The notes beneath the pieces were generated by a model, which saw only the letters and a list, made by a program, of their open reading frames with translations, searched no databases and had not been told where the DNA came from. Below, piece by piece: positions 1,327 to 28,653 of a DNA stretch of 64,000 nt (its first letter is position 1; each line of letters starts with the position of its first letter). Origin of the DNA: an uncultured Candidatus Saccharibacteria bacterium (lineage in GTDB: Bacteria > Patescibacteriota > Minisyncoccia > UBA6257 > 2-01-FULL-56-20); NCBI GenBank assembly GCA_964360585.1, contig CAYHXC010000007.1, positions 3,867 to 67,866 on the forward strand. The letters are read 5' to 3'. Made by a program: the position numbers and the translations under genes.

Positions 1327-2057
1327 TCCGTAGTCAGAAGCGAAGCAGCATCTTTGTCTAAAAGCCAGAATAGCTCACCGTTTTCCGGTTGTATCATGGC
1401 TACGGGGAGATTTTTATGCACTTCCCGATTTTCCAAGATTTCCTTTATTATTGGAGCTTTTTCTTTTCCGCTCGCCATTATGACAACGTGACGGGCGGTA
1501 TTGATTAATTTCAAGGAAAACGATAGGCGAATTGATGGAGGCTTTGGAGACTCAGTGATAACGAGAATCAGATCTTCATCGTTGTGTGGTTTGTATAATG
1601 CAGGAAATAAGGAAGCGGTATGACCGTCCGGGCCAATACCAAGAAAAATCAAATCGAACTTCGGTTCATTATTGCCAAGTAGTTCCTGAATATCCGCCGT
1701 GTAAATCCGAGCCGCGTTTTCAGGCGTCGAGTGTTTCGTAATATATGGGTGAAGATTTTCGATCGGCAGTGGAACTTTGCTGAGGAAATATTCATAGATT
1801 ATCCGATAGTTATTGTCCTCCCCTTCGTAAGGCACGAATCGTTCGTCGCTCAAAAAAATATGAACTTTGGACCAGTCGATCTGAGATCGGAACGGTTCTT
1901 CGGTAAGAAGGCGGTGCATAGTCTGGGGCGTCCCTCCTCCAGCCAAAGCAACGACAGCAACACCACGAATTTTTATAGCTTCTTCTACAGACTGACTGAA
2001 AAGTTGAGCCGCTTTTTTAGCAAGAGTCGGTTGGTTGGGAAGGATAAGTAGTTTCAT
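1311..2057 (-). CDS. pgl: 6-phosphogluconolactonase (NagB/DevB family)
   Basis: VALAGGGTP and later DERF-containing motifs typical of 6-phosphogluconolactonases. Confidence 0.75.
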   Translation of the reverse strand: MKLLILPNQPTLAKKAAQLFSQSVEEAIKIRGVAVVALAGGGTPQTMHRLLTEEPFRSQIDWSKVHIFLSDERFVPYEGEDNNYRIIYEYFLSKVPLPIENLHPYITKHSTPENAARIYTADIQELLGNNEPKFDLIFLGIGPDGHTASLFPALYKPHNDEDLILVITESPKPPSIRLSFSLKLINTARHVVIMASGKEKAPIIKEILENREVHKNLPVAMIQPENGELFWLLDKDAASLLTTDQISS

Positions 2058-2117
2058 GAAATCCGAGATATTGTACCATAGTTCTTGCCTCCCAACTCGG
2101 CAGTTGTTAGGATCTTT

Positions 2118-2285
2118 CTAGAACCCATCTCAAAAATAGAATCACGCAGTCTTCCGGCTAGATTCGGCTATAAACCCACCCGACCCTCCTTGAAATACCA
2201 TAGGGTATTCCTGTCTCGGGTCGGATGGTTCTCGCTCGAATCTATCACGGAATACCCCTGTGCCTATTTTTGAGATGGGTTCTAG
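2118..2285. mobile_element. MITE copy 1 (about 166 bp, terminal inverted repeats AGAACCCATCTCAAAAATA / TATTTTTGAGATGGGTTCT, flanked by CTAG)
   Basis: near-identical copies at 22884-23051, 28486-28653 and 55873-56040; perfect terminal inverted repeats (TIRs). Confidence 0.8.
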
Positions 2286-2304
2286 TTATTTGGAGGATAG
2301 AAAT

Positions 2305-3006
2305 ATGCCGAAACAAGTCCTGCCGGATATCGTTGGTTTTGGGTGGCTCACGGAGTATCTGAAGAGGCATGGATTTCACCAGCTCTCAGCTTCCGAGGCC
2401 TATCAACGAGTGGCTCCGTATTTGCCGAACTCTCCGAAGTACTGGCCTCACCGAAATCGATTTGAACAACGTCATCGCGAGGGGAGAGAAGCCGGGTTTA
2501 TCTTTTCGCAGAATGGTTATGATGCTGTCGTTTGGACAACCTGGCTGGTTCGTGAGGGTAGGCCGCGAGAAAGCGACACTGGTTGGGTGGTTATTTCGGA
2601 AGGACGAAAAGCCCTCTACTTTGCCAAGCCGGCCAACCGTACAAAGCACTTTCTTCGTACACTGGCCATGCGGGCGGCAGTAGCGAAGCAAAGAGTGGCG
2701 AAGCGTCCTCACTGTGAGTTGTGCAACACGCTCATGAGAATAGTGCGAGGCCCCGAGCTCCGAGAGCGTTATTGGCGCTGTGATCTGAAACATCGGCATA
2801 CAACGCGAAAGTACACTTCGCGGCCGTGGGACGTTGGTCTCACCCCCGAAATGCGCGAGTTTGTTGAAAAGACTCGCCGAGAAGAACAGCGGTACGAAAA
2901 AAGACTGTTAGCTCAAGGGAAACGGCCACACACAGCTATGCTGAAGCGCAAGCGGTGGGAAGATCGAGTGGCAGCAAAAAAGAAACGAGCGCTACAACCG
3001 AGATAA
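2305..3006 (+). CDS. hypothetical Arg/Lys-rich protein with C-x2-C ... C-x-x-x-x-H cysteines; higher GC than its neighbours
   Basis: ORF-track frame begins inside the MITE; first ATG after the element is at 2305; strongly basic, possibly nucleic-acid-binding. Confidence 0.4.
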   Translation: MPKQVLPDIVGFGWLTEYLKRHGFHQLSASEAYQRVAPYLPNSPKYWPHRNRFEQRHREGREAGFIFSQNGYDAVVWTTWLVREGRPRESDTGWVVISEGRKALYFAKPANRTKHFLRTLAMRAAVAKQRVAKRPHCELCNTLMRIVRGPELRERYWRCDLKHRHTTRKYTSRPWDVGLTPEMREFVEKTRREEQRYEKRLLAQGKRPHTAMLKRKRWEDRVAAKKKRALQPR

Positions 3007-3026
3007 TATCTCGGTTTTTCATTTTC

Positions 3027-3626
3027 TTACTTACAGTTTAGGGCACTTCGGCACTGGGCCTTGGCCGTCGGATCGTTCGTTGCCTGATCACAGAGGGCGC
3101 ACTGGGCTTCAAGCGAGACGCTCCCAGAAACCTGGCCGCTTACAGTGGGCGGTGGGGTCATCTGCTCCACTATTGCCTCATTTTCGATAAAGGTGACATT
3201 TTGCGGAAGAGTAATGAGTGTGGCGTCCTCGACCCAAGGATTACAGGAGTAGTTAAATTTTTGATCGAAATCAACCCCTCCCATCATACCCACTGTCGAC
3301 ATCTTGAATCCTTGGTTTGTGGTGTCCGACCAGATATAGGCCGACGCGCCGTCCACTAACGTATGGATCTGTTCGGCCTGGCCATTCGTCAACTCAACAA
3401 AGTTCATGAGTATCTTCCCTCCTGAAACATAGATCTCGCCCGAGGCGCTCGTGCCGGTCACGTCTTCCCCAAAGGTACATTTCTGCGAAGTTTGCGAGTC
3501 GAGAAGATCTTTAAGCGATGTTCCTCCGCCGGAGAAAAGACTTGAGCCGGATTGGGTCAATAAAAAATATGCACCACCGCCCAAGACTGCTACGACAATA
3601 ATGCCGATAATGATTTTTTTATTCAT
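3027..3626 (-). CDS. hypothetical secreted/membrane-anchored protein
   Basis: N-terminal transmembrane/signal segment, Gly/Ser-rich linker, C-terminal cysteines. Confidence 0.45.
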   Translation of the reverse strand: MNKKIIIGIIVVAVLGGGAYFLLTQSGSSLFSGGGTSLKDLLDSQTSQKCTFGEDVTGTSASGEIYVSGGKILMNFVELTNGQAEQIHTLVDGASAYIWSDTTNQGFKMSTVGMMGGVDFDQKFNYSCNPWVEDATLITLPQNVTFIENEAIVEQMTPPPTVSGQVSGSVSLEAQCALCDQATNDPTAKAQCRSALNCK

Positions 3627-3659
3627 GGAGTTAAGTATATAGTGGCCGCTGTTTCCGGT

Positions 3660-4418
3660 CTATACGGCCTCGATAGCTCGAGCGGCCTCACGATAGGCGC
3701 AGTAATCACACTCCGGTCCGGAAGCAGGAAGTTCGTCCGCGACAAGACAGTTGTGGGCGTTCTGGAGAGTTTCTCCGACCCAGCTATCGTCGCCTTCGTA
3801 GGGGATAAGCTTCACCTTGAACTCCAGCTTGCCATCGAAGGATTTTTTATCCGTTTCACCATTGCAGTACACAAAATACCCAGTTGAGCTCACTTTAAAA
3901 CCATTCCTTCGGAAGAGCCATTGGTATATTTCCATCTGGCGTTTGTAGCCGATTTGCCAGTCGGCATCGAGACTGACTTCGCCGTCTTTCGAAGTGGCTT
4001 TGTAGTCGACAATGATGAGCTCGCCCTTGGGATTAACCCAGACATCGTCCACGCCGCCGGTTACCAAAAAATTAGTTGGCTCGTGGAGATGTTGAATACC
4101 GCCGCCCAAAGCATCCCGCCAGAACTCCATTTTTTCATGTTCGTAGGGCACGGCATCAAGGCCGTAGGCTTCCATCATTGGATGGGCGGTATGAGCAGCG
4201 CGATGAATATCAAACTCTTTTTTCAGAAGTTTATCGACGGCGCTGTTGAGGCTGAACGGAAAACCGGGCGGTTGGCCGACGCCCAGGCGGCGATCAAGAT
4301 AAAAACAGCGCGGGCAGTTCAGAAAGAGGTCAATTTTTGAACGGCTCAACTTGAAAGGGACTTTGGAGTGTGGAACGAAAAGATTGCGAACTCGCTTCGG
4401 GTTGTAATAAGAACTCAT
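3660..4418 (-). CDS. PD-(D/E)XK nuclease, Cas4/RecB-like with 4Fe-4S cysteines
   Basis: N-terminal CPRC plus C-terminal C-x2-C; IVDYK core motif (D..E/D-x-K). Confidence 0.6.
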   Translation of the reverse strand: MSSYYNPKRVRNLFVPHSKVPFKLSRSKIDLFLNCPRCFYLDRRLGVGQPPGFPFSLNSAVDKLLKKEFDIHRAAHTAHPMMEAYGLDAVPYEHEKMEFWRDALGGGIQHLHEPTNFLVTGGVDDVWVNPKGELIIVDYKATSKDGEVSLDADWQIGYKRQMEIYQWLFRRNGFKVSSTGYFVYCNGETDKKSFDGKLEFKVKLIPYEGDDSWVGETLQNAHNCLVADELPASGPECDYCAYREAARAIEAV

Positions 4419-14387: not shown

Positions 14388-17300
14388 GTGACTATCCACT
14401 TTTCTCCTTCAGTACGGAAACGTTTCAATAATCTTAGGTTGCTTGTTCGTAGTTCCTGGAGTGTTATACGGCATCCGTTAAGCGATTGGCCATTACGGAC
14501 AAACAACTCTTTTTTTGATCGACAGACCGTTGCCATCAGCACCTTCCTCTGGGGTGGTGTTTTTATTATCCTCAACTTTCTTTTTGCCCAACGAGTTTCT
14601 ATTTTTTGGTTCAATCACTGGCCGGTCAAGATTCTGTCGAGTGTCATCTACGGATTTCTTATCTGGTATGGCGGAGCGTTGTTTTTCTTTTTAGTCGCTA
14701 AGCTATTTCGAAAAGAAACGACTCTGGCGCGTCTCGAGATGTTAGTTTTCCCGCTCTGGCTCACCTGGGCCCTAATGCCTTTTTTCGATCTTCCCCATCT
14801 TCTTTTCAGTATTCCGATGGTTTATATCTGGGGCGCTGGGGCGCATCTCTCCTGGTTACTCGGATTTCCAATGCTGGCATTCCTTTCGTTTTCCTTGATG
14901 CGATATGAGTTTCACTTGTCCAAGAGAGAAATGGGGGTTGCCATGCTTCTGGCTGGAGCAGTTCCCGTGATTGGCCGTTTCGTCATTGAGAAGAGTCCGT
15001 TTTGGTTTGATGCGTTTGTTCTCAGTCTAACGGGAAAGGGGATGGGGTTCCACAGCGCTTCGTTACTAGCGGTTCTTGTAGCCCTCCCGCTTGCTTTCCT
15101 CTTGCGCCACCTAACCCAACCTGGGCGTTCGTGGACAACTCTTTTTTCGCCGATAATTTTTTTGGTTCTGGTGGTTCCACTTTTTGTGATTACGGCCCAA
15201 CAAACTTCCTGGACAATGTTTATTCCCGGAGGAAAAATATTTAATTTTTCTCGTCAGATTGAAGGAGATTTTGGCCCGGGGGAGTCTCGGTATCGGCATT
15301 CCTATGTTTGGACGGGAGGGGATTATGAAACTTCGACAATTACGCATGGGGGAGCTGGCATTGTCACGGCATATTACAGTGATTATTACGTTGATGTGGC
15401 GGACCTCGATTTTAACCCTACTTTAGCGGATATTCGCGAGATTAGAATTCTGGTTGATTTCACCGGGAACACCAACCTAGGATCAACAAACAAAATACAG
15501 GGTTGTTTTGCGGCAGACACCGCGAATGCCAGTGGAACTTTTTACTGCAGTGACTGGCAGAATAGTCAAAATAGCACCTCAACATTTACTTTCCGCATTC
15601 GCTCTGACAGTATTTTTACCTTCGCCACAAGTTCTGATGGCGCCGCTACTTCAACTGCCGCCTGGAACACGTTGATCAGCGCTCTGACCCAGGATGATAA
15701 TGATGTCGCGGTGCACGCGTACGTTACCGGATCAGATGACGGTAATAATTCTAATGATGGAAAAGTGGAATTTACCAATGTCAATGTTGAAGTTGAATAC
15801 AAGGACTATAACGAACTTATCACCGAGTACACGTACTCGACCAGTACCCAATCAACAACCTCAACAACCGCCATCCCCATACTGACCCTGCCGTCATCGT
15901 CTTTGCCGAACGGCACTTACTTTGTTACTTGGGGAATGCAGGCCAGCGCTGATGCTACTTCGCTCGCGATTCCGACGGTGAGTTTGCGTCAAGAGACGGG
16001 AACGATCATTGCCACTGAAAGCATGAACCTTAATACGGTCACTTCCACGGACCCAACGAAAGGAAGTTTTTTTGGAGGATTTTGGGCTGGAACGCTGGAT
16101 GGCGCCTCCTCTCTTTCTCTGTATGGGAACAGTCTTTTTGGAACTGTTGGCATATATTTCGGAACACGGTATATAAGCGCGACGCGTCTCGATACCCGCC
16201 TCACGGCCAATCAAGATTACTGGTCGAATAGCAATAACAGCACCGCCGACGTACTCACTGACGCGACAACGACATTTACCGTTGTTACCTCGACGACCGC
16301 GACCTTTCATACGGAAGCAACGGCACAACCCTTTCTCCTCTTTGCTTCTATGACCGTGAACCCCGATCAGACTGCTCGTTATTGCTCAGCTCAAGTAAAA
16401 GTGAGTTCAACGGCGAGCGTTGCCACATACGGTGTGGCCTATCGTAGGGGAGTATCGGGCAGTGATGTTTGGCCCTATACGTTCGCCACACAGCTCAATC
16501 TGGCCTCTGGATCCGTCACTGTTTCCCTGGAAGGGAAAACCAATGCGGCGGCGGCGGCCTGCGACTACGCCCAGCCTCGTATTTTTATTGTTCGCGCCAG
16601 TCTTTTCGACACTATCGGGAATAGTAGCGCAACCGCCGCAGTCACGATTAACACCTCCTCACTGACTACCCTGACGACCACCAGTTTTGTTCCCCAGGAA
16701 CAAGGTGACGCGCTCATCGTCGGCAACTCACTTTTTAGTCCAACCTCATCCCGAGCCATGGTTCTTACTACCAACGTGTCAGGCACATCGAATATTTTTT
16801 TGGACAATCTGGGTCTTTTAGGAACAGCCGTTACCAGTACCTGGCCGGTTACCACGGTTTATGTGTATCGTAATATCAGTTCAACGGTTAACTTTGCTTT
16901 GAGCGCGCACGGTGTTGGTACGGCGAGTACCACATTCGCCAGTAGCTCCTATCTGACCGTCTGGTCTCTGCAACCGCCCATCTCGTATACCCAGTCCGGT
17001 TACCGTTGGTATGCGAATAGCGATGCAACTTCAACCGGAGCCGCCCTGGCCGCCACCAATACCGCGGCATTTGCTCCCGTTCAAGGGACCCCTTTTCGAT
17101 TACGGTCTCTCCTCCACATTGGGAGTTCGACGCTCTCTTCCAGTTCACAGCCGTTTAAACTGCAGTATGCTGAAAAATCAGGGACGTGCGATACTGCATT
17201 TTCTGGAGAAACCTATGGCGACGTCGGGCGGACAAGCGGCGCTATCCGTTTTTATAACAACGCTTCAGTCAGTGATGGGGTAAGAATTGCCACCTCTTCG

Positions 17301-19205
17301 GGTGATCCGGTCCATGGCAGTGATACGGTCGTGGCCCAAAGTTATGAGGAAGCAAACTCGTTTGTGGCGGTCACGAGCACGGCAAGTAGTAGTGACGCCA
17401 TGTGGGATTTTTCGTTGGTTGATAACTCTGCGGTAGCCAGTACGACCTACTGTTTCCGAGCGGTCCAGATTGGCGATGTGGCTCTCGACGCCTACAGTGT
17501 TATTCCCGAGATTACCACGAAGGGAGCTGCTCCAGCTTTGGGGAGTGTGACCTTAAACAATGGTTCTGATATTTCACTCACGCCAGCTACCACAACTCGC
17601 ATTTACGCCTCATCGAGCGTCGTATCTGATGCTGACGGAGCGGGGGATATCCTCTACGCCACCTCAACGTTCTACCGCTCAGGGGTAACGGGCGGGCAGG
17701 ATTGCGTGGCTAATGATTTAAACTGTTATCAAACAGCGAGTTCGAGTTGTAGTTTTGCCGCCAGCACCTCCACGGTATCTTGCTATACGGATATCTGGTA
17801 CTTTGCGCAAGCTACCGATGCCTCGTCTAGTTTTAGCGCGGAAAGTTGGCAGGCGGCAATTTCCGTGACTGATAAACAAGCAGTTTCTACGAGAGTCAGC
17901 TCGACGGTCGGAACGGTACAGATTATCTCTCTTATAGCCATCGGATCAGCAACCTCATCCCTAAATTACGGAACTCAATTTGCGGGACAAAATACCGGCA
18001 GTACCAATCAGTTAGCTAACATTATCAACTACGGAAATACCTCCTCGACACTTAAGGTCTCTGGCACAAACTTAACCAGCGGAGGAAATACAATTGACGT
18101 GAGTAATCTACACTATGCTTCATCAGGATTTACGTATGGAGGAGTAGAACAATCTTTAAGTACGATTGCCACTACGCTCACCGGTGTCACCATTCTCCGC
18201 CCACCGATGTCGCCACTTTGGTCAACCAGTACACTTCCTTATGAAATCATCCAGCATAATCTTTCAGAATATAATAACTTTTTATATCAAACTGGCGGTT
18301 TGGACGTATCTTTAGCAAACACCTCAAATGTATCTTTTGCCCCATTGAGTCCCACCGGGACCATAGGCACGTGGGCCACCACCACGAATTTATCAGAAGG
18401 AAGACGTTTGCATGCCGGAGGCACCTACGGGGGGTACCTTTATGTGGCTGGCGGATTGCTGGACGGGAATGTTCTTACGAGTTCGGTCAAATTTGCCCAA
18501 ATCAACAGCACGGGGAGTATTGGGAGTTGGCTAACTGCTACCGCGCTTCCCACGAGTACCTATCAGGCCGGCAACGTTATTTCTAATGGCTATTTGTATC
18601 TGGTAGGGGGAAAAACTGGAGAAAGTGACGCCACCAGTACCGTTCGGTATGTTTCCATTAATAGTACCGGTAGTGTAAATACTTGGGACACTACGACGGC
18701 CCTACCAGGTCCTCTTGCAAGTCAGTACGGAGTAGTTGCTTATCAAGGATATATCTATCATGTCGGCGGCGTAAATAATAGCGGCAATACCTCTAGTGTG
18801 TTTTATGCGCCTTTGAACAGTAATGGCACGATCGGTTCTTGGAATTCCGGTACGTCACTCCCGGGCAGTTTTGCTTCTCCCGCGTTGGCTGCTTCCGGAG
18901 GATTTCTTTTTGTGGCAGTGGGAAGTATAACCTCCACCTTTGTCTACGCCCCGCTTTACTCAAACGGTTCTTTGGGTTCTTGGTCCCTCGGCACCTCTTT
19001 GCCATCGAGTACCGCGACGGTGCCGGCGCTTGCTTGGAACGGAAATGTATATATTACTGGTAATAACAATGTTATTCCTCAAAAGGATGTATTTTGGATT
19101 CCCACAAACAATCGGAATACCTACTGGGGACTGAATGTGCCAACCGGTAACGTCTCGGGAACGTATAGCGGTACCGTTACCTTTACGGCGGCCTATACTC
19201 CCTAG
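14388..19205 (+). CDS. giant (1605 aa) membrane-anchored Ser/Thr-rich surface protein with C-terminal Kelch-like beta-propeller
   Basis: N-terminal multi-transmembrane region, huge Ser/Thr-rich middle section, repeated YLYVAGG / YLYLVGG / YIYHVGG blades. Confidence 0.6.
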   Translation: MTIHFSPSVRKRFNNLRLLVRSSWSVIRHPLSDWPLRTNNSFFDRQTVAISTFLWGGVFIILNFLFAQRVSIFWFNHWPVKILSSVIYGFLIWYGGALFFFLVAKLFRKETTLARLEMLVFPLWLTWALMPFFDLPHLLFSIPMVYIWGAGAHLSWLLGFPMLAFLSFSLMRYEFHLSKREMGVAMLLAGAVPVIGRFVIEKSPFWFDAFVLSLTGKGMGFHSASLLAVLVALPLAFLLRHLTQPGRSWTTLFSPIIFLVLVVPLFVITAQQTSWTMFIPGGKIFNFSRQIEGDFGPGESRYRHSYVWTGGDYETSTITHGGAGIVTAYYSDYYVDVADLDFNPTLADIREIRILVDFTGNTNLGSTNKIQGCFAADTANASGTFYCSDWQNSQNSTSTFTFRIRSDSIFTFATSSDGAATSTAAWNTLISALTQDDNDVAVHAYVTGSDDGNNSNDGKVEFTNVNVEVEYKDYNELITEYTYSTSTQSTTSTTAIPILTLPSSSLPNGTYFVTWGMQASADATSLAIPTVSLRQETGTIIATESMNLNTVTSTDPTKGSFFGGFWAGTLDGASSLSLYGNSLFGTVGIYFGTRYISATRLDTRLTANQDYWSNSNNSTADVLTDATTTFTVVTSTTATFHTEATAQPFLLFASMTVNPDQTARYCSAQVKVSSTASVATYGVAYRRGVSGSDVWPYTFATQLNLASGSVTVSLEGKTNAAAAACDYAQPRIFIVRASLFDTIGNSSATAAVTINTSSLTTLTTTSFVPQEQGDALIVGNSLFSPTSSRAMVLTTNVSGTSNIFLDNLGLLGTAVTSTWPVTTVYVYRNISSTVNFALSAHGVGTASTTFASSSYLTVWSLQPPISYTQSGYRWYANSDATSTGAALAATNTAAFAPVQGTPFRLRSLLHIGSSTLSSSSQPFKLQYAEKSGTCDTAFSGETYGDVGRTSGAIRFYNNASVSDGVRIATSSGDPVHGSDTVVAQSYEEANSFVAVTSTASSSDAMWDFSLVDNSAVASTTYCFRAVQIGDVALDAYSVIPEITTKGAAPALGSVTLNNGSDISLTPATTTRIYASSSVVSDADGAGDILYATSTFYRSGVTGGQDCVANDLNCYQTASSSCSFAASTSTVSCYTDIWYFAQATDASSSFSAESWQAAISVTDKQAVSTRVSSTVGTVQIISLIAIGSATSSLNYGTQFAGQNTGSTNQLANIINYGNTSSTLKVSGTNLTSGGNTIDVSNLHYASSGFTYGGVEQSLSTIATTLTGVTILRPPMSPLWSTSTLPYEIIQHNLSEYNNFLYQTGGLDVSLANTSNVSFAPLSPTGTIGTWATTTNLSEGRRLHAGGTYGGYLYVAGGLLDGNVLTSSVKFAQINSTGSIGSWLTATALPTSTYQAGNVISNGYLYLVGGKTGESDATSTVRYVSINSTGSVNTWDTTTALPGPLASQYGVVAYQGYIYHVGGVNNSGNTSSVFYAPLNSNGTIGSWNSGTSLPGSFASPALAASGGFLFVAVGSITSTFVYAPLYSNGSLGSWSLGTSLPSSTATVPALAWNGNVYITGNNNVIPQKDVFWIPTNNRNTYWGLNVPTGNVSGTYSGTVTFTAAYTP

Positions 19206-19329: not shown

Positions 19330-21828
19330 ATGAATAATACCAATTTTTTCGGTGGTCTTATAAATCAACAAAATCTGAAAAGGCTCGTTCTTTTCACCGC
19401 CCTTTTCGGCCTTTTTCTCGCCCTTGGCGCTAATTACGCGCGACACAATACCGGCACCGACTCACTCGTAAACGTGAGTTCCGCGGGGTGGGCGCCGCTC
19501 CTCAAGGGCTCCTATGACGCTCCTTCTACGCCTAATGCCAATGATGTTTTTGTCGAGGGAAACTACGAGTACGTTGTCACAGATAATAATACGAGTGGTG
19601 TTAATCCACCACATGAGTTCTATGTGATCGACGTTTCGAACCCGGGCGCTCCGTTCCGGGTTGGATCAGTTGAAATAGGCGGCGATGTGAGGAGCGTGGC
19701 GGTCAGCGGCAACTATGCCTATCTAGCTACCACTCTGGATACGCGGGAACTGGTCGTTATAAACATAAGTAGTAAATCGAACCCAACTATTGCTGGTTGG
19801 TACGATGCTGATCCCGGAGAGGGGCCAAATGGTCTGGCGGTCAGTGTTTCTGGGACGACCGTCTATCTGGGCACGATGAATAATGGCGGGGCTGGCGACA
19901 ACGAGTTTTATGTTTTAAACACCGCGAATCCATCAGCTATTACGCTCGTAGATGCTCTGGATGTTGATAATGACGTGAACGACATTAAGATCGCCCAAAA
20001 TTATGCCTATCTGGCTACCAGTCACAATACTAAGGAGTTGCTTCGCGTGAATATTCAAAATCCGGCCAACGTATTTGAGGCTGGCGCCTACGACACTCCT
20101 GGGGCCGCTGACGCGACTGGGGTAGATTACCGCTGGGGGCGGGTATTCTTGGGAACTGCTAATAATCAGTCCTCACCAGACTTTTTTGTCATCAATGCTT
20201 CCAGTTCAGCGCCGATGACGTTGGTTGGCTCGGTTGATTTGGGCAGTAATAATAACAAAGTGGTAGCCTATCGAGATAAGGTCTATATTGGCACCGACAC
20301 GGACACGCGAGGACTGACTATAGTGAACGTCGCCAATCCTCAAGCGCCGCAACAAGAGTACACGTATAAATCAGCAGGCAATGTTCTCGGGATATATGTA
20401 AAAGCCCCTTATACCTATCTGGCTACGGTGAGCAGTCCTGAAGTCGAAATTGTCGACACTGAGTTTTTGATGCGTCCGAATATTATTTTTATCTACACCG
20501 ATGATCAGCGCCAGGACACAGTTCAGTATATGCCAAAATTACAGAACCATCTGATCAATAACGGCATTACATTTACTAATTCTTTCGTGACAATTCCCGT
20601 TTGCTGTCCTTCGCGAGTCGGTACACTTACGGGAAGATACGCTCATAATACCGGTGTTATCAGCAATGTTTTTCCTGATGGGGGAGCCCGTAAGTTCGCG
20701 GGTCAGGATGGTTCGACTATCGCTACCTGGTTGCAGAGTGCTGGATATCGTACCGGTATATACGGTAAGTATTTGAACCAGTACGAAACGATGTGTCCTC
20801 CGGCTGGCTGTTATGTGCCTCCTGGCTGGGACGAGTGGCACGTCTTTCGAGAAGGGAGCGCTTACTATAACTACCACTTGACGAATAACACTGGCCCCAT
20901 AAGTTCGTACGAGTGGCATGGTAGTTCTTCTGCCGATTACGCTACTGATGTCATTACTATGAAGGCTTTGAATTTCATACAAACTTCAGATGGTAAGCCC
21001 TTCTACTTATCGGTAAACTACTTTGCTCCCCACGCCACGCCATTTACCCCACCGCTCGTAGCTCCTCGACACGCCGCAAGCCTTCCGAATTTCCAACCAA
21101 TTCACGGTCCCGCCTGGAACGAGGAAGATGTTTCTGATAAACCCTCTTTTTACGCTGATCGAGAGACTGCCGATGCGCCTTATGTACCACCATATACGCG
21201 TGGGGAGTGGTCCGATCTCTCTCAAAAAGCCGTAGCTCAATCACTTCAGGCGGTTGATGATGGGGTGGCAATTCTTCGATCGTATTTAAGCGCGATCGGG
21301 GAACTTGACGATACTGTTCTTGTCTACACCTCTGATAATGGCTTTATGGTTGGAGAGCATCGGCGTTTTGATGGCAAAGAATGTCCTCACGAAGAGTGTA
21401 TCCGAGTGCCCCTCATCATTAGCTACCCGCGGCTCATCGCTTCGCCCCGAGTCGAAAATCGGATGGCCTTGAATATTGATCTCGCTCCGACTTTTGCCGA
21501 CCTGGCTGGCATCACCCCCCCCTCTCCAGTTGACGGCTTGAGTTTAGAACCGATTCTTAAAAATCAGTCACCTTCATGGCGTACCGATTTTCTTATAGAG
21601 TTGTTGAGTCCTCTGGATTCTCAATGGGAGCCACCATTTACTGGAGTTCGCACCACCCAGTGGAAGTACATTCAGTCAACGAGCACCACCTCTTCAAGCA
21701 CGACCGAAGAAGCGCTCTATGATCTTCTGAACGATCCCTACGAGCTACAGAGTCAAGCCAGTAATCCGGCGTATGACTCGATCAAACAAACGCTCAAGGC
21801 TCGATTAGAAGTGCTCCGAGGGGAGTAG
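19330..21828 (+). CDS. LVIVD-repeat beta-propeller fused to a formylglycine-dependent sulfatase
   Basis: repeated YAYLAT...LVVINIS blades; C-terminal sulfatase signature CCPSR within PVCCPSRVGTLTGRY. Confidence 0.75.
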   Translation: MNNTNFFGGLINQQNLKRLVLFTALFGLFLALGANYARHNTGTDSLVNVSSAGWAPLLKGSYDAPSTPNANDVFVEGNYEYVVTDNNTSGVNPPHEFYVIDVSNPGAPFRVGSVEIGGDVRSVAVSGNYAYLATTLDTRELVVINISSKSNPTIAGWYDADPGEGPNGLAVSVSGTTVYLGTMNNGGAGDNEFYVLNTANPSAITLVDALDVDNDVNDIKIAQNYAYLATSHNTKELLRVNIQNPANVFEAGAYDTPGAADATGVDYRWGRVFLGTANNQSSPDFFVINASSSAPMTLVGSVDLGSNNNKVVAYRDKVYIGTDTDTRGLTIVNVANPQAPQQEYTYKSAGNVLGIYVKAPYTYLATVSSPEVEIVDTEFLMRPNIIFIYTDDQRQDTVQYMPKLQNHLINNGITFTNSFVTIPVCCPSRVGTLTGRYAHNTGVISNVFPDGGARKFAGQDGSTIATWLQSAGYRTGIYGKYLNQYETMCPPAGCYVPPGWDEWHVFREGSAYYNYHLTNNTGPISSYEWHGSSSADYATDVITMKALNFIQTSDGKPFYLSVNYFAPHATPFTPPLVAPRHAASLPNFQPIHGPAWNEEDVSDKPSFYADRETADAPYVPPYTRGEWSDLSQKAVAQSLQAVDDGVAILRSYLSAIGELDDTVLVYTSDNGFMVGEHRRFDGKECPHEECIRVPLIISYPRLIASPRVENRMALNIDLAPTFADLAGITPPSPVDGLSLEPILKNQSPSWRTDFLIELLSPLDSQWEPPFTGVRTTQWKYIQSTSTTSSSTTEEALYDLLNDPYELQSQASNPAYDSIKQTLKARLEVLRGE

Positions 21829-21921: not shown

Positions 21922-22872
21922 ATGCACACGCATACCATCCAAAAGCTAAGTCTTTTTTTACCGGCTTCGATATTTTTTTTAGGAGTCTTTCTCATCGCCC
22001 GAACCGTTTTTGGAGCTGGATCAACTCAAGACCTTTCAAGTCTCGTAACCATTGGGAACTCTGCCCCAACGGTTTCGGCAGTCACCATTAATAGCGGTAA
22101 CGATATCGTCCTTACTCCCAACGCTACAACGACGGTGTATGTTAACTTTACGGTTCAGGATGCAAATGGTTGTAATGACGTTTTTTTAAATGGCACGGTA
22201 ACGTCAACTATTTTCCGAACTGGAGTCGGATCTGCTTGCTCGGCGAGCGACCGGAACTGTTACATTGTGAGTACATCGACTAATAGCTGTAGCGGAAACG
22301 CTTCTACCTCGCTTGCGACCACAACTTTCTACGTGTATTATTTTGCCGACTCCACGACCAACACGACGACTGCCAGCTCTAGCTTCCCTTCGGACCACTG
22401 GACTGGTTTTGCCTGGGCTAAGGATGCCTCTCTGGCCAGTTCTTCCGCGACTTCGACCGCCACCGTGGAGATGAGCGTACTCACTGCCTTGAATGTAACG
22501 ACTTCCTCCATTAACTATGGAACATTGTCAGCCGGTCAAGATACGGGAGCTACGAACCAATTCGCCACAACAACAAATGCCGGTAACTCGACCACTACGC
22601 TTCGACTGCATGCAGTAGCAACACTAACTGCGGGAGCTAATTCCATTACAACGAGTTCACAAGCATTTTCAACGTCTAGTTTCACGTATGCGGGCACAAG
22701 CACTGCCTTGACTGCCTCGGCTGTAACGGTCAGTGGTTTTCTCTTGACCATTCCGACCACCACAACGAACGTATCCCGAGCAACGTACTGGGGCTTAACA
22801 GTGCCTTTCGGGCAAGCCACTGGGAGCTACTCCGGCACGACTCGTTTCACGGCATTATATCAGGAGAATTAG
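21922..22872 (+). CDS. secreted Ser/Thr-rich protein, paralog of an internal segment of the giant protein
   Basis: shared segments (SINYGTLSAGQDTGATNQ vs SLNYGTQFAGQNTGSTNQ) and a shared C-terminus (ATYWGLTVPFGQATGSYSGTTRFTALY vs NTYWGLNVPTGNVSGTYSGTVTFTAAY). Confidence 0.55.
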   Translation: MHTHTIQKLSLFLPASIFFLGVFLIARTVFGAGSTQDLSSLVTIGNSAPTVSAVTINSGNDIVLTPNATTTVYVNFTVQDANGCNDVFLNGTVTSTIFRTGVGSACSASDRNCYIVSTSTNSCSGNASTSLATTTFYVYYFADSTTNTTTASSSFPSDHWTGFAWAKDASLASSSATSTATVEMSVLTALNVTTSSINYGTLSAGQDTGATNQFATTTNAGNSTTTLRLHAVATLTAGANSITTSSQAFSTSSFTYAGTSTALTASAVTVSGFLLTIPTTTTNVSRATYWGLTVPFGQATGSYSGTTRFTALYQEN

Positions 22873-22883
22873 CAGTGTATTGC

Positions 22884-23051
22884 CTAGAACCCATCTCAAA
22901 AATAGAATCACGCAGTCTTCCGGCTAGATTCGGCTATAAACCCACCCGACCCTCCTTGAAATACCATAGGGTATTCCTGTCTCGGGTCGGATGGTTCTCG
23001 CTCGAATCTATCACGGAATACCCCTGTGCCTATTTTTGAGATGGGTTCTAG
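22884..23051. mobile_element. MITE copy 2
   Basis: near-identical to 2118-2285. Confidence 0.8.
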
Positions 23052-23090: not shown

Positions 23091-24026
23091 ATGGACAGCT
23101 TTTATGATTTTTTGAAGAAAAGGGGCAAGATTCACACTGCTCTTTTTTCTTTCTTGGTGTGCGGCGCTTTACTTGTCCCCCAGGTTAGTTTTGGCGCGTT
23201 TGGAGCCTCGCCGCCGGTCTTAAACGCTACGCGATTGGTTCCTGGAATAAAATACCAACAGATTATTTATCTCGCGCGCGATAATGCCGAGAATGATTTG
23301 GTCATATCCGCCGACTTGGACGTTCCAGACACTATTAAGGAGTGGGTGCGTATTGAGCAGGGTAGTCAGTTCATTATCCCTCGCGATGTGCGGCAGTTCC
23401 CGATAACCGTCTTGATTGATGTCCCGAGTAGCGCCGGGCTCGGTATTTATAACGGCCGAGTAACTTTTTCCAGCGTTCCGAATAAAGAAGGCCAACAGGT
23501 GGCTATCTCTTTGGGCATAGAAATTCCTTTGAATCTCACGGTGGGTGATAATATCTCTCGAGAAGTTAAAGTCCGCTTGATTAAGTTGCTCGATATCGAA
23601 GAAGGTTGGGACCCCCGGGTATACGTTAAATTTGAGAATCTGGGGAATATCTCTGAAAAGTTCGATTCAGCAAACTATGAGCTTCTCGATAATTATGGCA
23701 ATGTTCGCCTTGCTTTTGCTCAAAAAACCGAAGACTTCCCAGAAACCCCGGCATTTTCTACCAACGAATATACAATTGACTTCCCCATGGATTTCCATTT
23801 GGGTGTAGGCCAGTATTGGGCAGTGGTTAATTTTTATCAGGAAGGTAAGGTGATCGGCAGTCAAAAAACTATTTTTAATGTTTTGAAGAGGGGATCGCTA
23901 TCCAGTCCGGCCGGACAGCTGTGGCAAGTATTGCGGCTTCAGGAGTTCTGGATGTTCTATCTCGGAGGGCTCGTTCTTATCATTCTCTACTTTTTACGCC
24001 GGAGGTTTTTTAGAAAATCTGTTTAA
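23091..24026 (+). CDS. hypothetical secreted protein with C-terminal transmembrane anchor
   Basis: signal peptide, C-terminal hydrophobic helix plus basic tail. Confidence 0.45.
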   Translation: MDSFYDFLKKRGKIHTALFSFLVCGALLVPQVSFGAFGASPPVLNATRLVPGIKYQQIIYLARDNAENDLVISADLDVPDTIKEWVRIEQGSQFIIPRDVRQFPITVLIDVPSSAGLGIYNGRVTFSSVPNKEGQQVAISLGIEIPLNLTVGDNISREVKVRLIKLLDIEEGWDPRVYVKFENLGNISEKFDSANYELLDNYGNVRLAFAQKTEDFPETPAFSTNEYTIDFPMDFHLGVGQYWAVVNFYQEGKVIGSQKTIFNVLKRGSLSSPAGQLWQVLRLQEFWMFYLGGLVLIILYFLRRRFFRKSV

Positions 24027-24029
24027 TGC

Positions 24030-25226
24030 ATGATCCCAATCAAAAAGCTTTTTACCGGAGTACTCCTTCTTGCTCAGACTCTCACTGCCTCGGCCGCTGA
24101 TATTTCGACCGTAGTAACAATCACTGTCACTCCTTCGCCGCCAAGCAGTCTCGGCGCTTCAGTGGTTTCCAGTAGTCAGATTACGTTGTCCTGGACGGAT
24201 AATTCGAACAATGAGGATGGGTTTTCTGTTGAACGGAAGACGGGGGTCGGTGGCACGTATGCGGAGATAGCTACGACCAGTCTTGGCGTGGCGACATATG
24301 CCGACAGTGGTCTTTCTGCGAGTACACTCTACTACTACCGTGTGGCGGCCTTTAGCGTAGACGGAAACTCTGCCTACAGTAACGAAGCCTCATCAACGAC
24401 GAGTAATGGGAGTAGTCCTCCACCAAATACTGGCGGAGGTGGCGGGGGAGGGGGGGGCGGGGGCGGAGGAGGTGGTAGTCCATCCGCACCGATTACCGCC
24501 GTAGTTTTTAAGGGGAGGGCCTACCCCTTGAGCCAAGTAAGCATCTTAAAAGATGGCCAACTGGCAGTGAGAACAATCGCTGGACCAGATAGTAAGTTCG
24601 CAGTTTCTTTGAGTAACTTATCGTCCGGAAACTACACATTTTCTGTCTACGGTGAAGATAGTAATGGTCTTCGTTCCAGCTTGTTCACGTTTCCAGTCTT
24701 CATCACCGCGGGGGTGACGACAGAAATAAGCGGGATATTTATCTCACCTACCATCACTGCGGATAAGAGTCAGGTGAAGCGGGGAGATACGATTACTATT
24801 TTTGGACAAAGCGCTCCATCCTCGTCCATTTCTATTACTATTAATTCTAAAAAAGAACTTATTGTCACGCGCCCCTCTGATGTTCAGGGTGTCTACCTGC
24901 TGAACTTGGATAGCGCGCAACTCGAACTGGGCCAGCATACCGCGCAATCGAAAGCTACTCTTGAAACTGAGGTTAGTCCCATATCCAAAACGCTGAGCTT
25001 CACTGTCGGTACAAAGAATGTAAAGGCGGAGCTCTCAAAGGGCTGTGGTCGGGCCGATCTGAACTGTGACGGTAACGTCAATCTAGTCGACTTTTCAATC
25101 GCTGCCTACTGGTACAATCGCGTCCTGGATACCAAATTTGCAGCCATTGAAGCGGAGCGATTAAATAACGATGGCAAGATTACGCTCATCGACTTTAGTA
25201 TTATGGCGTATTACTGGACCGGTTAA
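24030..25226 (+). CDS. secreted FN3-domain protein with poly-Gly linker and C-terminal dockerin-like duplicated repeat
   Basis: signal peptide; fibronectin type III (FN3)-like segment (LSWTDNSNNEDGFSVERK); DLNCDGNVNLVDF and LNNDGKITLIDF repeats match the dockerin motif. Confidence 0.6.
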   Translation: MIPIKKLFTGVLLLAQTLTASAADISTVVTITVTPSPPSSLGASVVSSSQITLSWTDNSNNEDGFSVERKTGVGGTYAEIATTSLGVATYADSGLSASTLYYYRVAAFSVDGNSAYSNEASSTTSNGSSPPPNTGGGGGGGGGGGGGGGSPSAPITAVVFKGRAYPLSQVSILKDGQLAVRTIAGPDSKFAVSLSNLSSGNYTFSVYGEDSNGLRSSLFTFPVFITAGVTTEISGIFISPTITADKSQVKRGDTITIFGQSAPSSSISITINSKKELIVTRPSDVQGVYLLNLDSAQLELGQHTAQSKATLETEVSPISKTLSFTVGTKNVKAELSKGCGRADLNCDGNVNLVDFSIAAYWYNRVLDTKFAAIEAERLNNDGKITLIDFSIMAYYWTG

Positions 25227-25228
25227 TC

Positions 25229-26092
25229 ATGGCAACTTTTAAAAAAATAGTGTCCGTTTTTCTTCTCGTCTTCTGGTTTGCACCTGCCGTTTCTTTGGCG
25301 GCCCGTCTTTACACCGCTACTGAGAAGTCCACGATTACGAGCAATAATCAATTTTTAGTTGATGTCTATGTAGATTCCGACCAGTCGGTTAATGCCCTCT
25401 CGGGGTATTTAGAGTTTTCTAAAGAAATTCTTCGCGTGGTAGACATCTTTGAAGGCGATTCAATCATCAACTTTTGGATTGAACGGCCACGCCAGGGAAC
25501 GCCCGGGGTGGTTAATTTTTCCGGCATCACTCCCGGAGGGTTTACCGGAACCAAACACAAGGTATTTTCTATCGTTTTTGAGGCGGCGTACCCTGGCCAG
25601 GCTGTAGTAAAGTTCTCCGATAGTACAGCGCTGGCGAATGATGGACTGGGTAGTCAACTGCCCACTGAAGTTGCGGCTCTGTCGTTATCTATTTTGCCAA
25701 GCGACGGCACTTCTATTCAGAAGATGATGCGTGACGAAAATCCTCCCGAACCATTTAAGGCTTCTATTGAAAGTGACCCGAATATATTCGAAGGACGGTA
25801 TTTCCTCGTATTTAGCACTGAGGATAAGGGTACTGGCATTTCTCACTATGAGATCAGGGAAGGTCTCCGGGGAACCTTTAAGCGTGCAGAGAGCCCGTAT
25901 CTCTTGGAGGATCAAAGCCTTACAAAAACAATTTCCCTGAAGGCCATCGATAAGGCCGGGAATGAACAGCTCATTGTTATCGAAAAAGGAGAAAGCGTTT
26001 CGAGTGTCTGGGAAGAGTATGGCTGGTTCGCTATAATGGCTTTAATAGTTATGGTGATGACCTTGCTTCTTTTTATCTTTAAGCGCCGATGA
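25229..26092 (+). CDS. cohesin-like domain protein with C-terminal transmembrane anchor
   Basis: cohesin-like pattern (FLVDVYVDS...LSGYLEFSKEILRVVDI..GD...NFSGITPGGFTG...VVKFSD...ANDG); C-terminal helix plus KRR. Confidence 0.5.
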   Translation: MATFKKIVSVFLLVFWFAPAVSLAARLYTATEKSTITSNNQFLVDVYVDSDQSVNALSGYLEFSKEILRVVDIFEGDSIINFWIERPRQGTPGVVNFSGITPGGFTGTKHKVFSIVFEAAYPGQAVVKFSDSTALANDGLGSQLPTEVAALSLSILPSDGTSIQKMMRDENPPEPFKASIESDPNIFEGRYFLVFSTEDKGTGISHYEIREGLRGTFKRAESPYLLEDQSLTKTISLKAIDKAGNEQLIVIEKGESVSSVWEEYGWFAIMALIVMVMTLLLFIFKRR

Positions 26093-27189
26093 ATAAGTTT
26101 TGGAAAATAGTTTTTGTTCTCCTTGTCCTCCTGGGCGCTCCTCGCGGAGCAGAGGCGGCTACGTTAGGAATGAATCCTCCGAGCGCCACGTTCGAAGTGG
26201 GCGATCGGGTGATTCTCCAGGTGCAAGTGGAAAGCGGTGTTCCAATAAATGCAGTTTCTGCTATCGTTTCGTTCCCACCGATATTTTCTATTGAATCGAT
26301 TTCTAAGTCAGACTCCATTCTCAACTTTTGGGTTTCCGAACCAAGCTTCTCGAAGAATGCGGGCACAGTTTCATTAGAAGGAGTAACGTTGGGTGGGTTC
26401 TCCGGAAAAATTGGAACAGTTCTCACGGTGCGAGCCAAAGTCGTGAAAGATGGCTCGGGTTCAATTGCATTTAAGTCCGGCCAAATTTTAGCGAATGACG
26501 GAGAAGGTACTGACATTATCTCCGGTTTCCGTACCTTCTCCTACGAGGTCAAGCCAAAAACCGGTGTTTCACCGCCTGTAGAAAAAACTGAAGAACTAGA
26601 GATTCAGCCAGAACGACCGCAAGAGCCGGCTACATTAACAGCGCCTGAGCTTATCGTGAGCCAATCGTTTGGACGTGAGGCAGTCATTGGGACTTCCCGT
26701 TATCCGCAGTCGCAAACGCTTGTGACTTTCCAATCGGCAGATGGCACAAAGATATTTCTCCAAGGGCGAACTGATGATCGGGGCGGTTTTCTCGTGTCCG
26801 TCCCCTCAGCCCTGAAGCGCGGAACCTACTCAGCTACTGCGCTGGTTATTACCCAGGAGCAACTCTACACAGCGCCATCAAATCGCGTAACAGTAATCGT
26901 TGGTAGCCCCTTCTCCGATCTGAGTCCTGAAAGTAGGCTTGTAGCTATTATTCTCCTTCTCGTCATTTTGTACTTAGGAGCAGTTCTCTTGGTATATATT
27001 CTCAAAGTTCGACGAGTAAGGGCTCGGATTCGAGAGGAGTCTCGGGAAGTGCAAGGCACTGTTCGTAAATCATTCAAATTATTAAATCAGGATATCGCTG
27101 ATGTTGCTTCGACTCGTGAAATAAAAAAAGATCTGAAGAACTCCGAAGAAACGATTCTTGAAGAAATTAAAGAAGTCGGAGACACATGA
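26089..27189 (+). CDS. cohesin-like domain protein with C-terminal transmembrane anchor (paralog)
   Basis: ATGA start/stop overlap with the upstream gene; same domain pattern as 25229-26092. Confidence 0.5.
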   Translation: MNKFWKIVFVLLVLLGAPRGAEAATLGMNPPSATFEVGDRVILQVQVESGVPINAVSAIVSFPPIFSIESISKSDSILNFWVSEPSFSKNAGTVSLEGVTLGGFSGKIGTVLTVRAKVVKDGSGSIAFKSGQILANDGEGTDIISGFRTFSYEVKPKTGVSPPVEKTEELEIQPERPQEPATLTAPELIVSQSFGREAVIGTSRYPQSQTLVTFQSADGTKIFLQGRTDDRGGFLVSVPSALKRGTYSATALVITQEQLYTAPSNRVTVIVGSPFSDLSPESRLVAIILLLVILYLGAVLLVYILKVRRVRARIREESREVQGTVRKSFKLLNQDIADVASTREIKKDLKNSEETILEEIKEVGDT

Positions 27190-28478
27190 GAAAAATTTTC
27201 GCTGGAGTAGCATTACTCTCCTGTGTCTCGCTCATCCTCGCGGTGAGCGTCCAGGCCCAAACCATTAGTTTACAGGCCTCCTCGTTAGTGCCAGAGGTTG
27301 CTTTGCTGGTATCGCCAGGAACCGGCAGTTTTGAAGACGGCGGCACGTTCACCATTTCCATTCTCGTCGACACAAAGGGAAAGAGTGTTAACAGTCTTGA
27401 GGTTGCTCTCAGTTTTGATCCGGATAAACTATCTATTGTTGGGCCGTCCGGAGGAAAATCCATTATTGGCGTCTGGGTTGAGCCTCCGATTTACGACAAC
27501 GCTACGGGTATTGCTCGTTACGCCGGGGTTATTCCCGGCGGTATTATTACGAGCTCCGGTCTTATAAACTCTATTACTTTCAAAACCAAGCGTCCCGGTC
27601 AAACTGCCATTGTTTTAAATGCCAGCTCGAAGGTGTATTTGAATGACGGTTTTGGCACGACCGCCCGAGTGAATGTTGGGCGGGGAACGTTCACTATTCT
27701 TCCCAAACCGTCGGCTGGTGTCGTGGTTTTTTCGGAAACACATCCGGTTCAAAGGAATTGGTATAACAATAACAACCCCATCCTCTCATGGGAGCGAGAG
27801 CCAGGTGCTACGGAGTATAGTTATGTCTTAGACAACCAGCCGGGAACTATTCCGGACAACACTCCGGAGACAGAGGGGGCAACGGTGCAATCTAAAGATC
27901 TGCAGGATGGCATCTGGTATTTCCATATAAAATCGAACAAAAACGGTCTTTGGGGACAGCCCGGTGTTTTTGTGATCCAGATCGATACGGCTCCGCCGGC
28001 TGAATTTCAACCAGCCATCGACTATCTTCTGGCCGCACTTAGCTTAGTGAATCGAGCCTTGGTTTCGTATTTCACCACGGACAACTTATCGGGAATAGAT
28101 CACTATGAAGTTGGCGTCATCGACAAGACCCAGCCAACGACTGTTTCTCCGGTCTTTGAAGAAGTGGCTAGTCCGTACCAAGTACCGTTAGAGGAAGGAG
28201 GAAATGCACGAGTTTTGGTTCGGGCTTTTGACCGGGCCGGCAATGTGCGGGAAGCAGGAGTAGATATTAAAACTCCATTTTTCATAAATAATTTTCTCGA
28301 GAAATACGGACTCCTTGTGCTCATTGGTCTCCTCTCTGCTATTATCGTGCTGATGTTATTGCATTACCTTATTACGCACCATCTGCTTCGCCATGCGAAG
28401 AAAGCGCTCAGGGCATTCGAGGAAGATGCAGCGGAAGACAACAATCCTTTGCCGCCAGTACTTCCACCACAACCGTAG
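27186..28478 (+). CDS. cohesin-like domain protein with C-terminal transmembrane anchor (paralog)
   Basis: ATGA start/stop overlap; same domain pattern plus extra C-terminal domains. Confidence 0.5.
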   Translation: MRKIFAGVALLSCVSLILAVSVQAQTISLQASSLVPEVALLVSPGTGSFEDGGTFTISILVDTKGKSVNSLEVALSFDPDKLSIVGPSGGKSIIGVWVEPPIYDNATGIARYAGVIPGGIITSSGLINSITFKTKRPGQTAIVLNASSKVYLNDGFGTTARVNVGRGTFTILPKPSAGVVVFSETHPVQRNWYNNNNPILSWEREPGATEYSYVLDNQPGTIPDNTPETEGATVQSKDLQDGIWYFHIKSNKNGLWGQPGVFVIQIDTAPPAEFQPAIDYLLAALSLVNRALVSYFTTDNLSGIDHYEVGVIDKTQPTTVSPVFEEVASPYQVPLEEGGNARVLVRAFDRAGNVREAGVDIKTPFFINNFLEKYGLLVLIGLLSAIIVLMLLHYLITHHLLRHAKKALRAFEEDAAEDNNPLPPVLPPQP

Positions 28479-28485
28479 TTTCTGC

Positions 28486-28653
28486 CTAGAACCCATCTCA
28501 AAAATAGAATCACGCAGTCTTCCGGCTAGATTCGGCTATAAACCCACCCGACCCTCCTTGAAATACCATAGGGTATTCCTGTCTCGGGTCGGATGGTTCT
28601 CGCTCGAATCTATCACGGAATACCCCTGTGCCTATTTTTAAGATGGGTTCTAG
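28486..28653. mobile_element. MITE copy 3; its terminal CTAG supplies the fmt stop codon
   Basis: near-identical to copy 1; the fmt stop (TAG, minus strand, 28650-28652) lies inside the element terminus. Confidence 0.8.

Follow-up and report, generated by a model that had tools for sequence, protein, structure and literature searches.

A candidate non-cellulosomal cohesin-dockerin surface-display operon conserved across Patescibacteria

The described systems closest to the operon reported here are the cellulosomal type I cohesin-dockerin pairs, for example those of Acetivibrio/Clostridium thermocellum, C. cellulolyticum and C. acetobutylicum (PDB entries 1g1k, 2vn5, 4uyp and 6kgc), the OlpA/OlpC/SdbA-type anchors, in which a single cohesin per SLH-bound wall anchor presents a dockerin-bearing partner (4dh2, Coh-OlpC/Doc435), and the GH84 toxin complexes of C. 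perfringens (2w1n), in which cohesin and dockerin serve outside cellulose degradation as modules on secreted glycoside hydrolases that bind each other. Non-cellulosomal cohesin-dockerin modules were reportedly surveyed by Peer et al. in 2009. The operon lies in a 64,000-nucleotide (nt) stretch of contig CAYHXC010000007.1 (assembly GCA_964360585.1, positions 3,867 to 67,866 of the forward strand; the whole stretch is called the window here) from an uncultured Candidatus Saccharibacteria bacterium. Its genes G1 to G4 (24030-28478 of the window) encode a secreted protein with a C-terminal dockerin (G1) and three membrane proteins with one cohesin-like domain each (G2, G3 and G4). Based on sequence comparison and structural models we propose, with moderate confidence, that they form a non-cellulosomal cohesin-dockerin surface-display operon conserved across Patescibacteria, in which G1 would bind to the cohesin-like proteins.

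As in the type I pairs, the dockerin of G1 is C-terminal and consists of two putative Ca2+-loop/helix repeats with internal two-fold similarity (DFSIAAYWY and DFSIMAYYW), and the model of G4 contains the same jelly-roll as the type I cohesins. The locus differs from these pairs in that there is no multi-cohesin scaffoldin, glycoside hydrolase or carbohydrate-binding module (CBM), the dockerin being carried by a non-enzymatic protein with FN3 and immunoglobulin-like (Ig) domains, and in that the dockerin helices are unusually aromatic and the second loop lacks Asp at position 1. With the OlpA/OlpC/SdbA-type anchors G2, G3 and G4 share the single cohesin per surface anchor, and 4dh2 was among the Foldseek matches of the G4 model (TM-score 0.65-0.68), but they are anchored by a C-terminal transmembrane helix followed by a cytoplasmic tail instead of SLH domains, and three distinct paralogues are co-encoded with a single dockerin protein. 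The C. perfringens complexes resemble the operon in their use outside cellulose degradation and in the order of cohesin and FN3, which recurs in G4, whereas here dedicated membrane anchors and a non-enzymatic dockerin protein are combined in one conserved operon.

A dockerin surface protein with Ig/FN3-type domains has also been described in a patescibacterium: SEML1_0315 of the saccharibacterium Southlakia epibionticum is an essential, dockerin-domain envelope protein with a proposed role in host interaction (Wang et al. 2023, PMC10633639). Unlike G1, this 927-amino acid (aa) protein is encoded by a stand-alone gene, whose neighbours are a hydrolase gene and a tRNA gene instead of cohesin-like genes, and we therefore rejected it as an orthologue of the operon; the word 'cohesin' is absent from the tables of that publication. 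A literature search for cohesin or dockerin in Patescibacteria, Parcubacteria and CPR (Candidate Phyla Radiation) classes did not turn up any account of the operon. Public annotation already has the domain names, as NCBI entries MEK7187558-560 (G2, G3 and G4, with MEK7187558.1 being G2 and MEK7187559.1 being G3) are named 'cohesin domain-containing protein' and several G1 homologues 'dockerin type I repeat-containing protein'; distinct here is the combination of three transmembrane-anchored single-cohesin paralogues with a non-enzymatic dockerin carrier.

G1 (24030-25226, 398 aa), G2 (25229-26092, 287 aa), G3 (26089-27189, 366 aa) and G4 (27186-28478, 430 aa) are all located on the + strand, confirming the four open reading frames (ORFs) of the preliminary description. 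They are preceded on the same strand by U3 (23091-24026, 311 aa), which stops 3 nt before the ATG of G1. The spacings between U3, G1, G2, G3 and G4, read directly at the junctions, are 3, 2, -4 and -4 nt, and the tight block thus comprises five genes, U3-G1-G2-G3-G4. The ATGA start/stop overlap claimed for three genes was borne out at G2/G3 and G3/G4 only, whereas 2 nt separate the TAA of G1 from the ATG of G2, hence these two genes do not overlap. On the 3' side the block is followed by fmt and def on the opposite strand. Searching the complete window with family hidden Markov models (HMMs) gave one dockerin and three cohesin-like domains, and no further dockerin was detected in it by HMM or by a regular expression for the loops. 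Promoter and terminator scans returned counts no higher than background.

G1 is composed of a signal peptide, an FN3 domain, a poly-Gly linker, two Ig domains and the C-terminal dockerin, the features given below all being on the + strand. In a hydropathy scan its N-terminus is signal-peptide-like (MIPIKKLFTGVLLLAQTLTASA followed by AD) and shorter than those of G2, G3, G4 and U3, and no transmembrane segment was found in the protein. The FN3 domain (24120-24398, aa 31-123) matched Pfam fn3 with 34.9 bits (cutoff 25) and is made up of beta strands in the AlphaFold model of G1, which has a predicted local distance difference test score (pLDDT) of 87.0. The poly-Gly linker (24429-24479, aa ~134-150) is modelled with a pLDDT below 50 at aa 134-146, and its residues G142-G148 are nearly invariant in an alignment of 40 G1 orthologues. 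Signal peptide, FN3 domain and linker were all found as first described. In the tandem Ig-like domains (24498-25010, aa 157-237 and 243-327) the model shows strands in both; Pfam Big_6 reached 24.8 bits in this region, under its cutoff of 27.6, and PF17936 is precomputed for many orthologues. Across the 40 aligned sequences the poly-Gly run, the two Ig domains and the C-terminal dockerin segment are kept as a core, with the C-terminal consensus KGDLNxDGRVNLVDFSIAAYWYKRP...LNGDGKIDLxDFSIMAYYWTG, and the N-terminal module differs, being FN3, Cys-rich or other. More than 100 full-length homologues of G1 were retrieved at ~50% identity, and those with a named source are all from Patescibacteria.

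The C-terminal domain of G1 (25047-25223, aa ~340-398) is a real dockerin. Searched as an isolated 73-aa domain it matched Dockerin_1 (PF00404) with 28.3 bits (E 2.1e-6), above the cutoff of 22.9, as did 24 of 24 orthologous domains from syntenic loci with E-values down to 7e-11. The profile of the G1 dockerin family had type I dockerins as its top matches in the PDB (E 2e-6 to 6e-3), headed by 2y3n_B (2.3e-6) and followed by 5nrm_B, 4fl4_A, 1daq_A, 2mte_A and CelD. The modelled domain contains three helices (aa 352-361, 368-377 and 386-394), with pLDDT means over 10-residue blocks of 76-96 across aa 331-398 and 85-96 across the helices. Both repeat motifs that had been quoted as dockerin-type, DLNCDGNVNLVDF and LNNDGKITLIDF, are present. 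Loop 1 (D343-L-N-C-D-G-N-V-N-L-V-D354) is canonical, with D343, N345, D347, N351 and D354 at positions 1, 3, 5, 9 and 12 being (nearly) invariant in the orthologues, and leads into the aromatic helix FSIAAYWY; loop 2 (R377-L-N-N-D-G-K-I-T-L-I-D388) precedes a second aromatic helix, FSIMAYYW. A Foldseek search with the full G1 model returned generic FN3 arrays only and was uninformative on the dockerin.

G2, G3 and G4 are paralogous type I membrane proteins that carry the cohesin-like domain membrane-distal on stalks of unequal length. The hydropathy scan revealed an N-terminal signal segment and a single C-terminal transmembrane segment in each of them, in agreement with the preliminary description. 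In G2 the signal peptide is followed by the cohesin-like domain (aa ~24-160, nt 25298-25708), a beta-sandwich (aa ~185-250) with a weak NCBIfam match to an OmpL47-type barrel at aa 195-246, the transmembrane segment (aa 266-284) and a tail of three residues, KRR. G3 comprises signal peptide, cohesin-like domain (aa ~22-160, nt 26152-26568), a Pro/Glu-rich linker, a further ectodomain, the transmembrane segment (aa 284-302) and a charged cytoplasmic tail of ~60 aa. G4 is built of signal peptide, cohesin-fold domain (aa 37-172, nt 27294-27701), two FN3/Ig-like stalk domains (aa 181-266 and 277-362), the transmembrane segment (aa 374-392) and a helical cytoplasmic tail, a long helix at aa 366-417 crossing the membrane into the cytoplasm in the AlphaFold model. 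The ~140-aa N-terminal domains of the three proteins are 29-31% identical in BLASTP (E 1e-19, 5e-16 and 4e-10), a likeness that is, by sequence comparison, far beyond chance.

Each of the three proteins is predicted to contain a cohesin-fold domain, based on family profiles and on the model of G4. The combined G2/G3/G4 profile had Ruminococcus flavefaciens cohesins as its top matches in the PDB (E 7e-4), Pfam Cohesin (PF00963) was found at E <= 0.1 in 8 of 23 domain sequences (best E 4.5e-9), and most G4 orthologues have a precomputed PF00963 match. The AlphaFold model of G4 (pLDDT 85.2) consists of a beta-sandwich at aa 37-172 and two FN3/Ig-like domains at aa 181-362. Its best Foldseek match in the PDB is 2w1n, the cohesin and FN3 domains of the non-cellulosomal C. 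perfringens GH84C (E 2e-12), and it superposes on the nine-stranded jelly-roll of solved type I cohesins with TM-scores of 0.72-0.78 and a root-mean-square deviation (rmsd) of 2.4-3.0 Å over ~150 columns, the scores being 0.78 for 6kgc_A (rmsd 2.4 Å), 0.76 for 1g1k_A, 0.73 for 2vn5_C and 0.72 for 4uyp_C. The modelled structure is that of G4, and the fold assignment of G2 and G3 goes through G4 by means of the family HMMs, which were built from syntenic orthologues and cross-match at E 1e-16 to 1e-29.

G4 is the most conserved member: 66 of its positions are invariant in 40 orthologues, the stalk domains holding many of these, and its full-length homologues at ~50% identity number in the hundreds. 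Its family comprises 1775 clusters at 50% identity (E <= 1e-30), a count that takes in giant stalk-repeat proteins. In such giant metagenomic proteins (1,700-5,800 aa) the stalk domains of G4 (27726-28271, aa 181-362) are found in tandem, in as many as 31 matched stretches. The three paralogue families all share, without variation, an N, S..W...P, a G and the motif L-x-N-D-G-x-G-T, located at aa ~136-143 of G2, aa ~133-140 of G3 and aa 151-158 of G4, where it is modelled in the loop between strands 149-152 and 159-164. To our knowledge this motif is not characteristic of canonical cohesins, and a Ca2+ or ligand site could lie there.

To follow the operon across genomes we scanned one genome per GTDB species, which gave 80 loci, and searched these with the dockerin and cohesin HMMs; 61 of them have enough upstream sequence to be informative. 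The loci come from Parcubacteria/Paceibacteria and from Zambryski-, Taylor-, Kaiser-, Uhr-, Magasanik-, Kerfeld-, Doudna-, Sung-, Portnoy- and Harrisonbacteria. A dockerin gene lies directly 5' of the cohesin-like array in 47 of the 61 informative loci, the start of the dockerin domain preceding the first cohesin-like domain by less than 900 nt, and the gene is accompanied by three cohesin-like genes in 38 loci, by two in six, by four in two and by one in a single locus. Four cohesin-like genes with no detectable dockerin are present in one locus, and the other 13 contain a lone G4-like gene. The orthologous order G1-G2-G3-G4 is retained in ~30 loci, and the flanks vary from locus to locus (fmt/def, glycosyltransferases, Fic or SelR). 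The conservation of the order, dockerin first and cohesins next, across Patescibacteria argues for a functional unit. Of the surface-protein gene sets traceable in Patescibacteria, the operon is one of the more conserved and, judged by the homologues retrieved, the system is restricted to this group and conserved across it. In two Zambryskibacteria loci the dockerin gene is separated from the first cohesin-like gene by an inserted small ORF for an 87-aa GIY-YIG domain protein (L003, 4875-5138; L004, 3880-4143).

In one patescibacterial metagenome-assembled genome (locus L022), the sole such case among more than 80 loci, two extra large proteins with a C-terminal Dockerin_1 domain (35.9 and 35.7 bits) are encoded at 57-1904 and 1921-4398, immediately 5' of the G1-G4 module. 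Additional dockerins beside the module are expected if the cohesins form a docking platform.

The preliminary description regarded the module as self-contained, which is doubtful on three counts. U3 is located 3 nt upstream of G1 here, and jackhmmer detected homologues of it immediately upstream of G1 in at least 18 further loci, distant lineages included. Furthermore, a gene for a giant surface protein is usually found upstream of G1, and a G4-like gene has no dockerin neighbour in the 13 loci mentioned above. U3 has a signal peptide and a C-terminal transmembrane segment (aa 283-301) and belongs to an unannotated family: neither Pfam, NCBIfam nor PDB profiles gave a match, and its homologues are all named 'hypothetical protein'. 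The gene is probably a fifth component of the operon, as suggested by its position across genomes.

In the mechanism that we propose, G1 would be exported by the Sec system, whereupon its dockerin would fold around Ca2+ and dock onto one or more of the cohesin-like domains of G2, G3 and G4. Docking would tether the Ig/FN3 arm to the cytoplasmic membrane of the monoderm cell, and the flexible poly-Gly linker would allow contact of the variable tip with a target, for example a glycan, a further envelope layer or a host cell. Indirect support for docking comes from the adjacency of dockerin and cohesin-like genes in 47 of the 61 informative loci. G2, G3 and G4 would probably act jointly as a heteromeric platform and not as redundant anchors, because the three paralogues stay separate orthogroups over large phylogenetic distances, and G3 and G4 may connect this platform to the cell interior through their cytoplasmic tails. 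No enzyme would be involved. That the system serves host attachment is speculation.

Several findings weigh against this proposal. At the level of full-length proteins Dockerin_1 scored 22.3 bits in G1, just under the gathering threshold of 22.9, and PF00963 scored 17.3 bits in G4, under its gathering threshold of 24.1, with no Pfam Cohesin match in full-length G2 or G3. The full-length profile of the G4 family reached PDB cohesins at E 0.085 only, and sequence identity to solved cohesins is just 15-22%, a remote similarity. Loop 2 of the dockerin has Arg instead of Asp at position 1, followed by N3, D5, T9 and D12; a non-acidic residue at position 1 is also found in the long-linker subfamily, whereas the short-linker subfamily has D there. 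Beyond the single proteins, the local ratio of one dockerin to three cohesin-like proteins is an unexplained stoichiometry. The 13 lone G4-like genes have no dockerin within 8 kb, and a search for conserved neighbours of these genes found none. In a mirror-tree analysis of 28 genomes the dockerin correlated with each cohesin family at 0.46-0.52 (partial correlations 0.24-0.34), singling out no cohesin partner. Identity across classes amounts to ~50-60%, unusually high for an adhesin, and the L-x-N-D-G-x-G-T motif may point to another ligand.

Due to the sub-threshold full-length Pfam scores, the identification rests on domain-level, family-level and structural evidence, and it is at these levels that the cohesin and dockerin assignments of the preliminary description stood: the isolated dockerin, its 24 orthologues and most G4 orthologues match their Pfam profiles, and the G4 domain superposes on type I cohesins, but the full-length searches fell short. 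If those searches are taken at face value, together with the many generic FN3/Ig arrays among the Foldseek matches of G4, the resemblance could be superficial, G2, G3 and G4 being generic beta-sandwich membrane proteins encoded beside a protein with an EF-hand-like motif, with no cohesin-dockerin relationship. We regard this as very unlikely, since the single-domain structural matches of the G4 N-terminal domain are specifically cohesins, the best PDB sequence-profile matches are dockerins for the G1 domain and cohesins for G2/G3/G4, all of the orthologous dockerins and most G4 orthologues pass Pfam, and dockerin and cohesin-like domains are co-located in the majority of informative loci (47/61).

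The main rival to the proposed dockerin-cohesin tether is an envelope scaffold for other partners, which we consider possible but rather unlikely. G2, G3 and G4, together with U3, would then be a structural or assembly platform of the envelope whose partner is the upstream giant protein, an S-layer or a wall polymer; the cohesin-like fold would have been repurposed to bind a ligand other than a dockerin, while the dockerin of G1 would bind something else or only stabilise G1 with Ca2+. The strong conservation of G4, including its stalk, is consistent with such a role, as are the L-x-N-D-G-x-G-T motif common to all three paralogues, the G4-like genes that occur without dockerin and the tandem recurrence of the stalk domains in giant proteins. 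Moreover, a same-strand ORF of more than 600 aa is found within 6 kb upstream of G1 in 32 of 40 loci, represented here by the 1605-aa U0. However, these giant proteins contain neither a dockerin nor a cohesin-like domain and do not form one orthologous family, having PATR repeats in locus L085 and Kelch-like repeats in the window, and the tightest and most constant linkage is that of dockerin beside cohesin. The scaffold is also partly compatible with dockerin binding. A bolder reading, to which we give only a small probability, is a core envelope machine specific to Patescibacteria, in which a heterotrimeric platform of repurposed cohesin-like proteins, together with U3, holds an arm with an exchangeable tip and, in some genomes, further dockerin proteins; with it these ultra-small episymbionts could organise their surface or grip hosts, the conserved tails coupling it to the interior. 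If true, the module would be more than one adhesin among others, namely an attachment or envelope system that is widespread but so far undescribed.

Cohesin and dockerin folds are building blocks of cellulosomes, and a gene for an LVIVD-sulfatase fusion (19330-21828) and glycosyltransferase genes lie nearby, so that the locus might also be seen as a minimal cellulosome-like polysaccharide degrader, whose cohesin proteins would anchor dockerin-bearing glycoside hydrolases encoded elsewhere. This is extremely unlikely. The sole dockerin protein in the 64 kb has neither a catalytic domain nor a CBM, there is one cohesin per protein and no SLH or sortase anchor, the sulfatase lacks a dockerin and is missing from the syntenic locus L001, and the extra dockerin proteins of L022 have no enzyme domain in Pfam. 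Patescibacteria generally have reduced genomes and little polysaccharide catabolism. The Pfam scan gave no SLH match, and a Gram_pos_anchor match (E 0.26) covers the transmembrane segment only. With no enzyme, CBM, multi-cohesin scaffoldin, SLH or sortase anchor in the window, a cellulosome is ruled out locally, consistent with the non-cellulosomal context described before.

Little is known of how the ultra-small cells of Patescibacteria (CPR) construct their surface and become attached to hosts, as a group of which very few members are amenable to culture. The operon offers a concrete and testable hypothesis with small, expressible domains, namely that a Ca2+-dependent dockerin-cohesin tether operates on membrane anchors. 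Its confirmation would widen the range of cohesin-dockerin assembly to membrane-anchored, enzyme-free display in a major uncultivated lineage and would provide protein engineering with orthogonal binding pairs. Without such confirmation some other explanation would be needed for the three conserved cohesin-like proteins.

Upstream of U3 the window contains a cluster of further surface-protein genes. U0 (14388-19205, 1605 aa) has a polytopic membrane N-terminus with ~6 transmembrane segments at aa 48-270, a long Ser/Thr-rich region and Kelch-like repeats toward the C-terminus, and U2 (21922-22872) encodes a secreted protein of 316 aa. U0 and U2 share the C-terminal motif YWGLxVPxGxxxGxYSGTxxFTAxY, and their homology is detectable by jackhmmer. 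The YWGLxVP motif at the C-terminus and the transmembrane-anchored two-domain protein give an impression, and only that, of WxL/Csc likeness; we rejected a Gram-positive WxL/Csc cluster, in which WxL domain proteins accompany a transmembrane-anchored DUF916/DUF3324 protein, for U0, U2 and U3 as the only match was WxLIP_PGBD in U2 (E 0.21), with no such Pfam match in the U3 family. Between U0 and U2 lies the gene for the LVIVD-sulfatase fusion (832 aa), which combines an N-terminal transmembrane segment, an LVIVD beta-propeller, Sulfatase and SGSH_C. As it is missing from the otherwise syntenic L001, the fusion was apparently inserted into the surface-protein cluster in a lineage-specific manner.

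Finally, a 168-nt element is present in four near-identical intergenic copies on the + strand (22884-23051, 28486-28653, ~2118-2285 and ~55873-56040), two of which bracket the U3-G4 block and are both missing from L001. The element is bounded by 22-nt terminal inverted repeats (CTAGAACCCATCTCAAAAATAG ... CTATTTTTRAGATGGGTTCTAG) and has no match in Rfam. It folds as one long hairpin (-79.2 kcal/mol, z = -10.1) and looks like a miniature inverted-repeat transposable element (MITE) or a large palindromic repeat.

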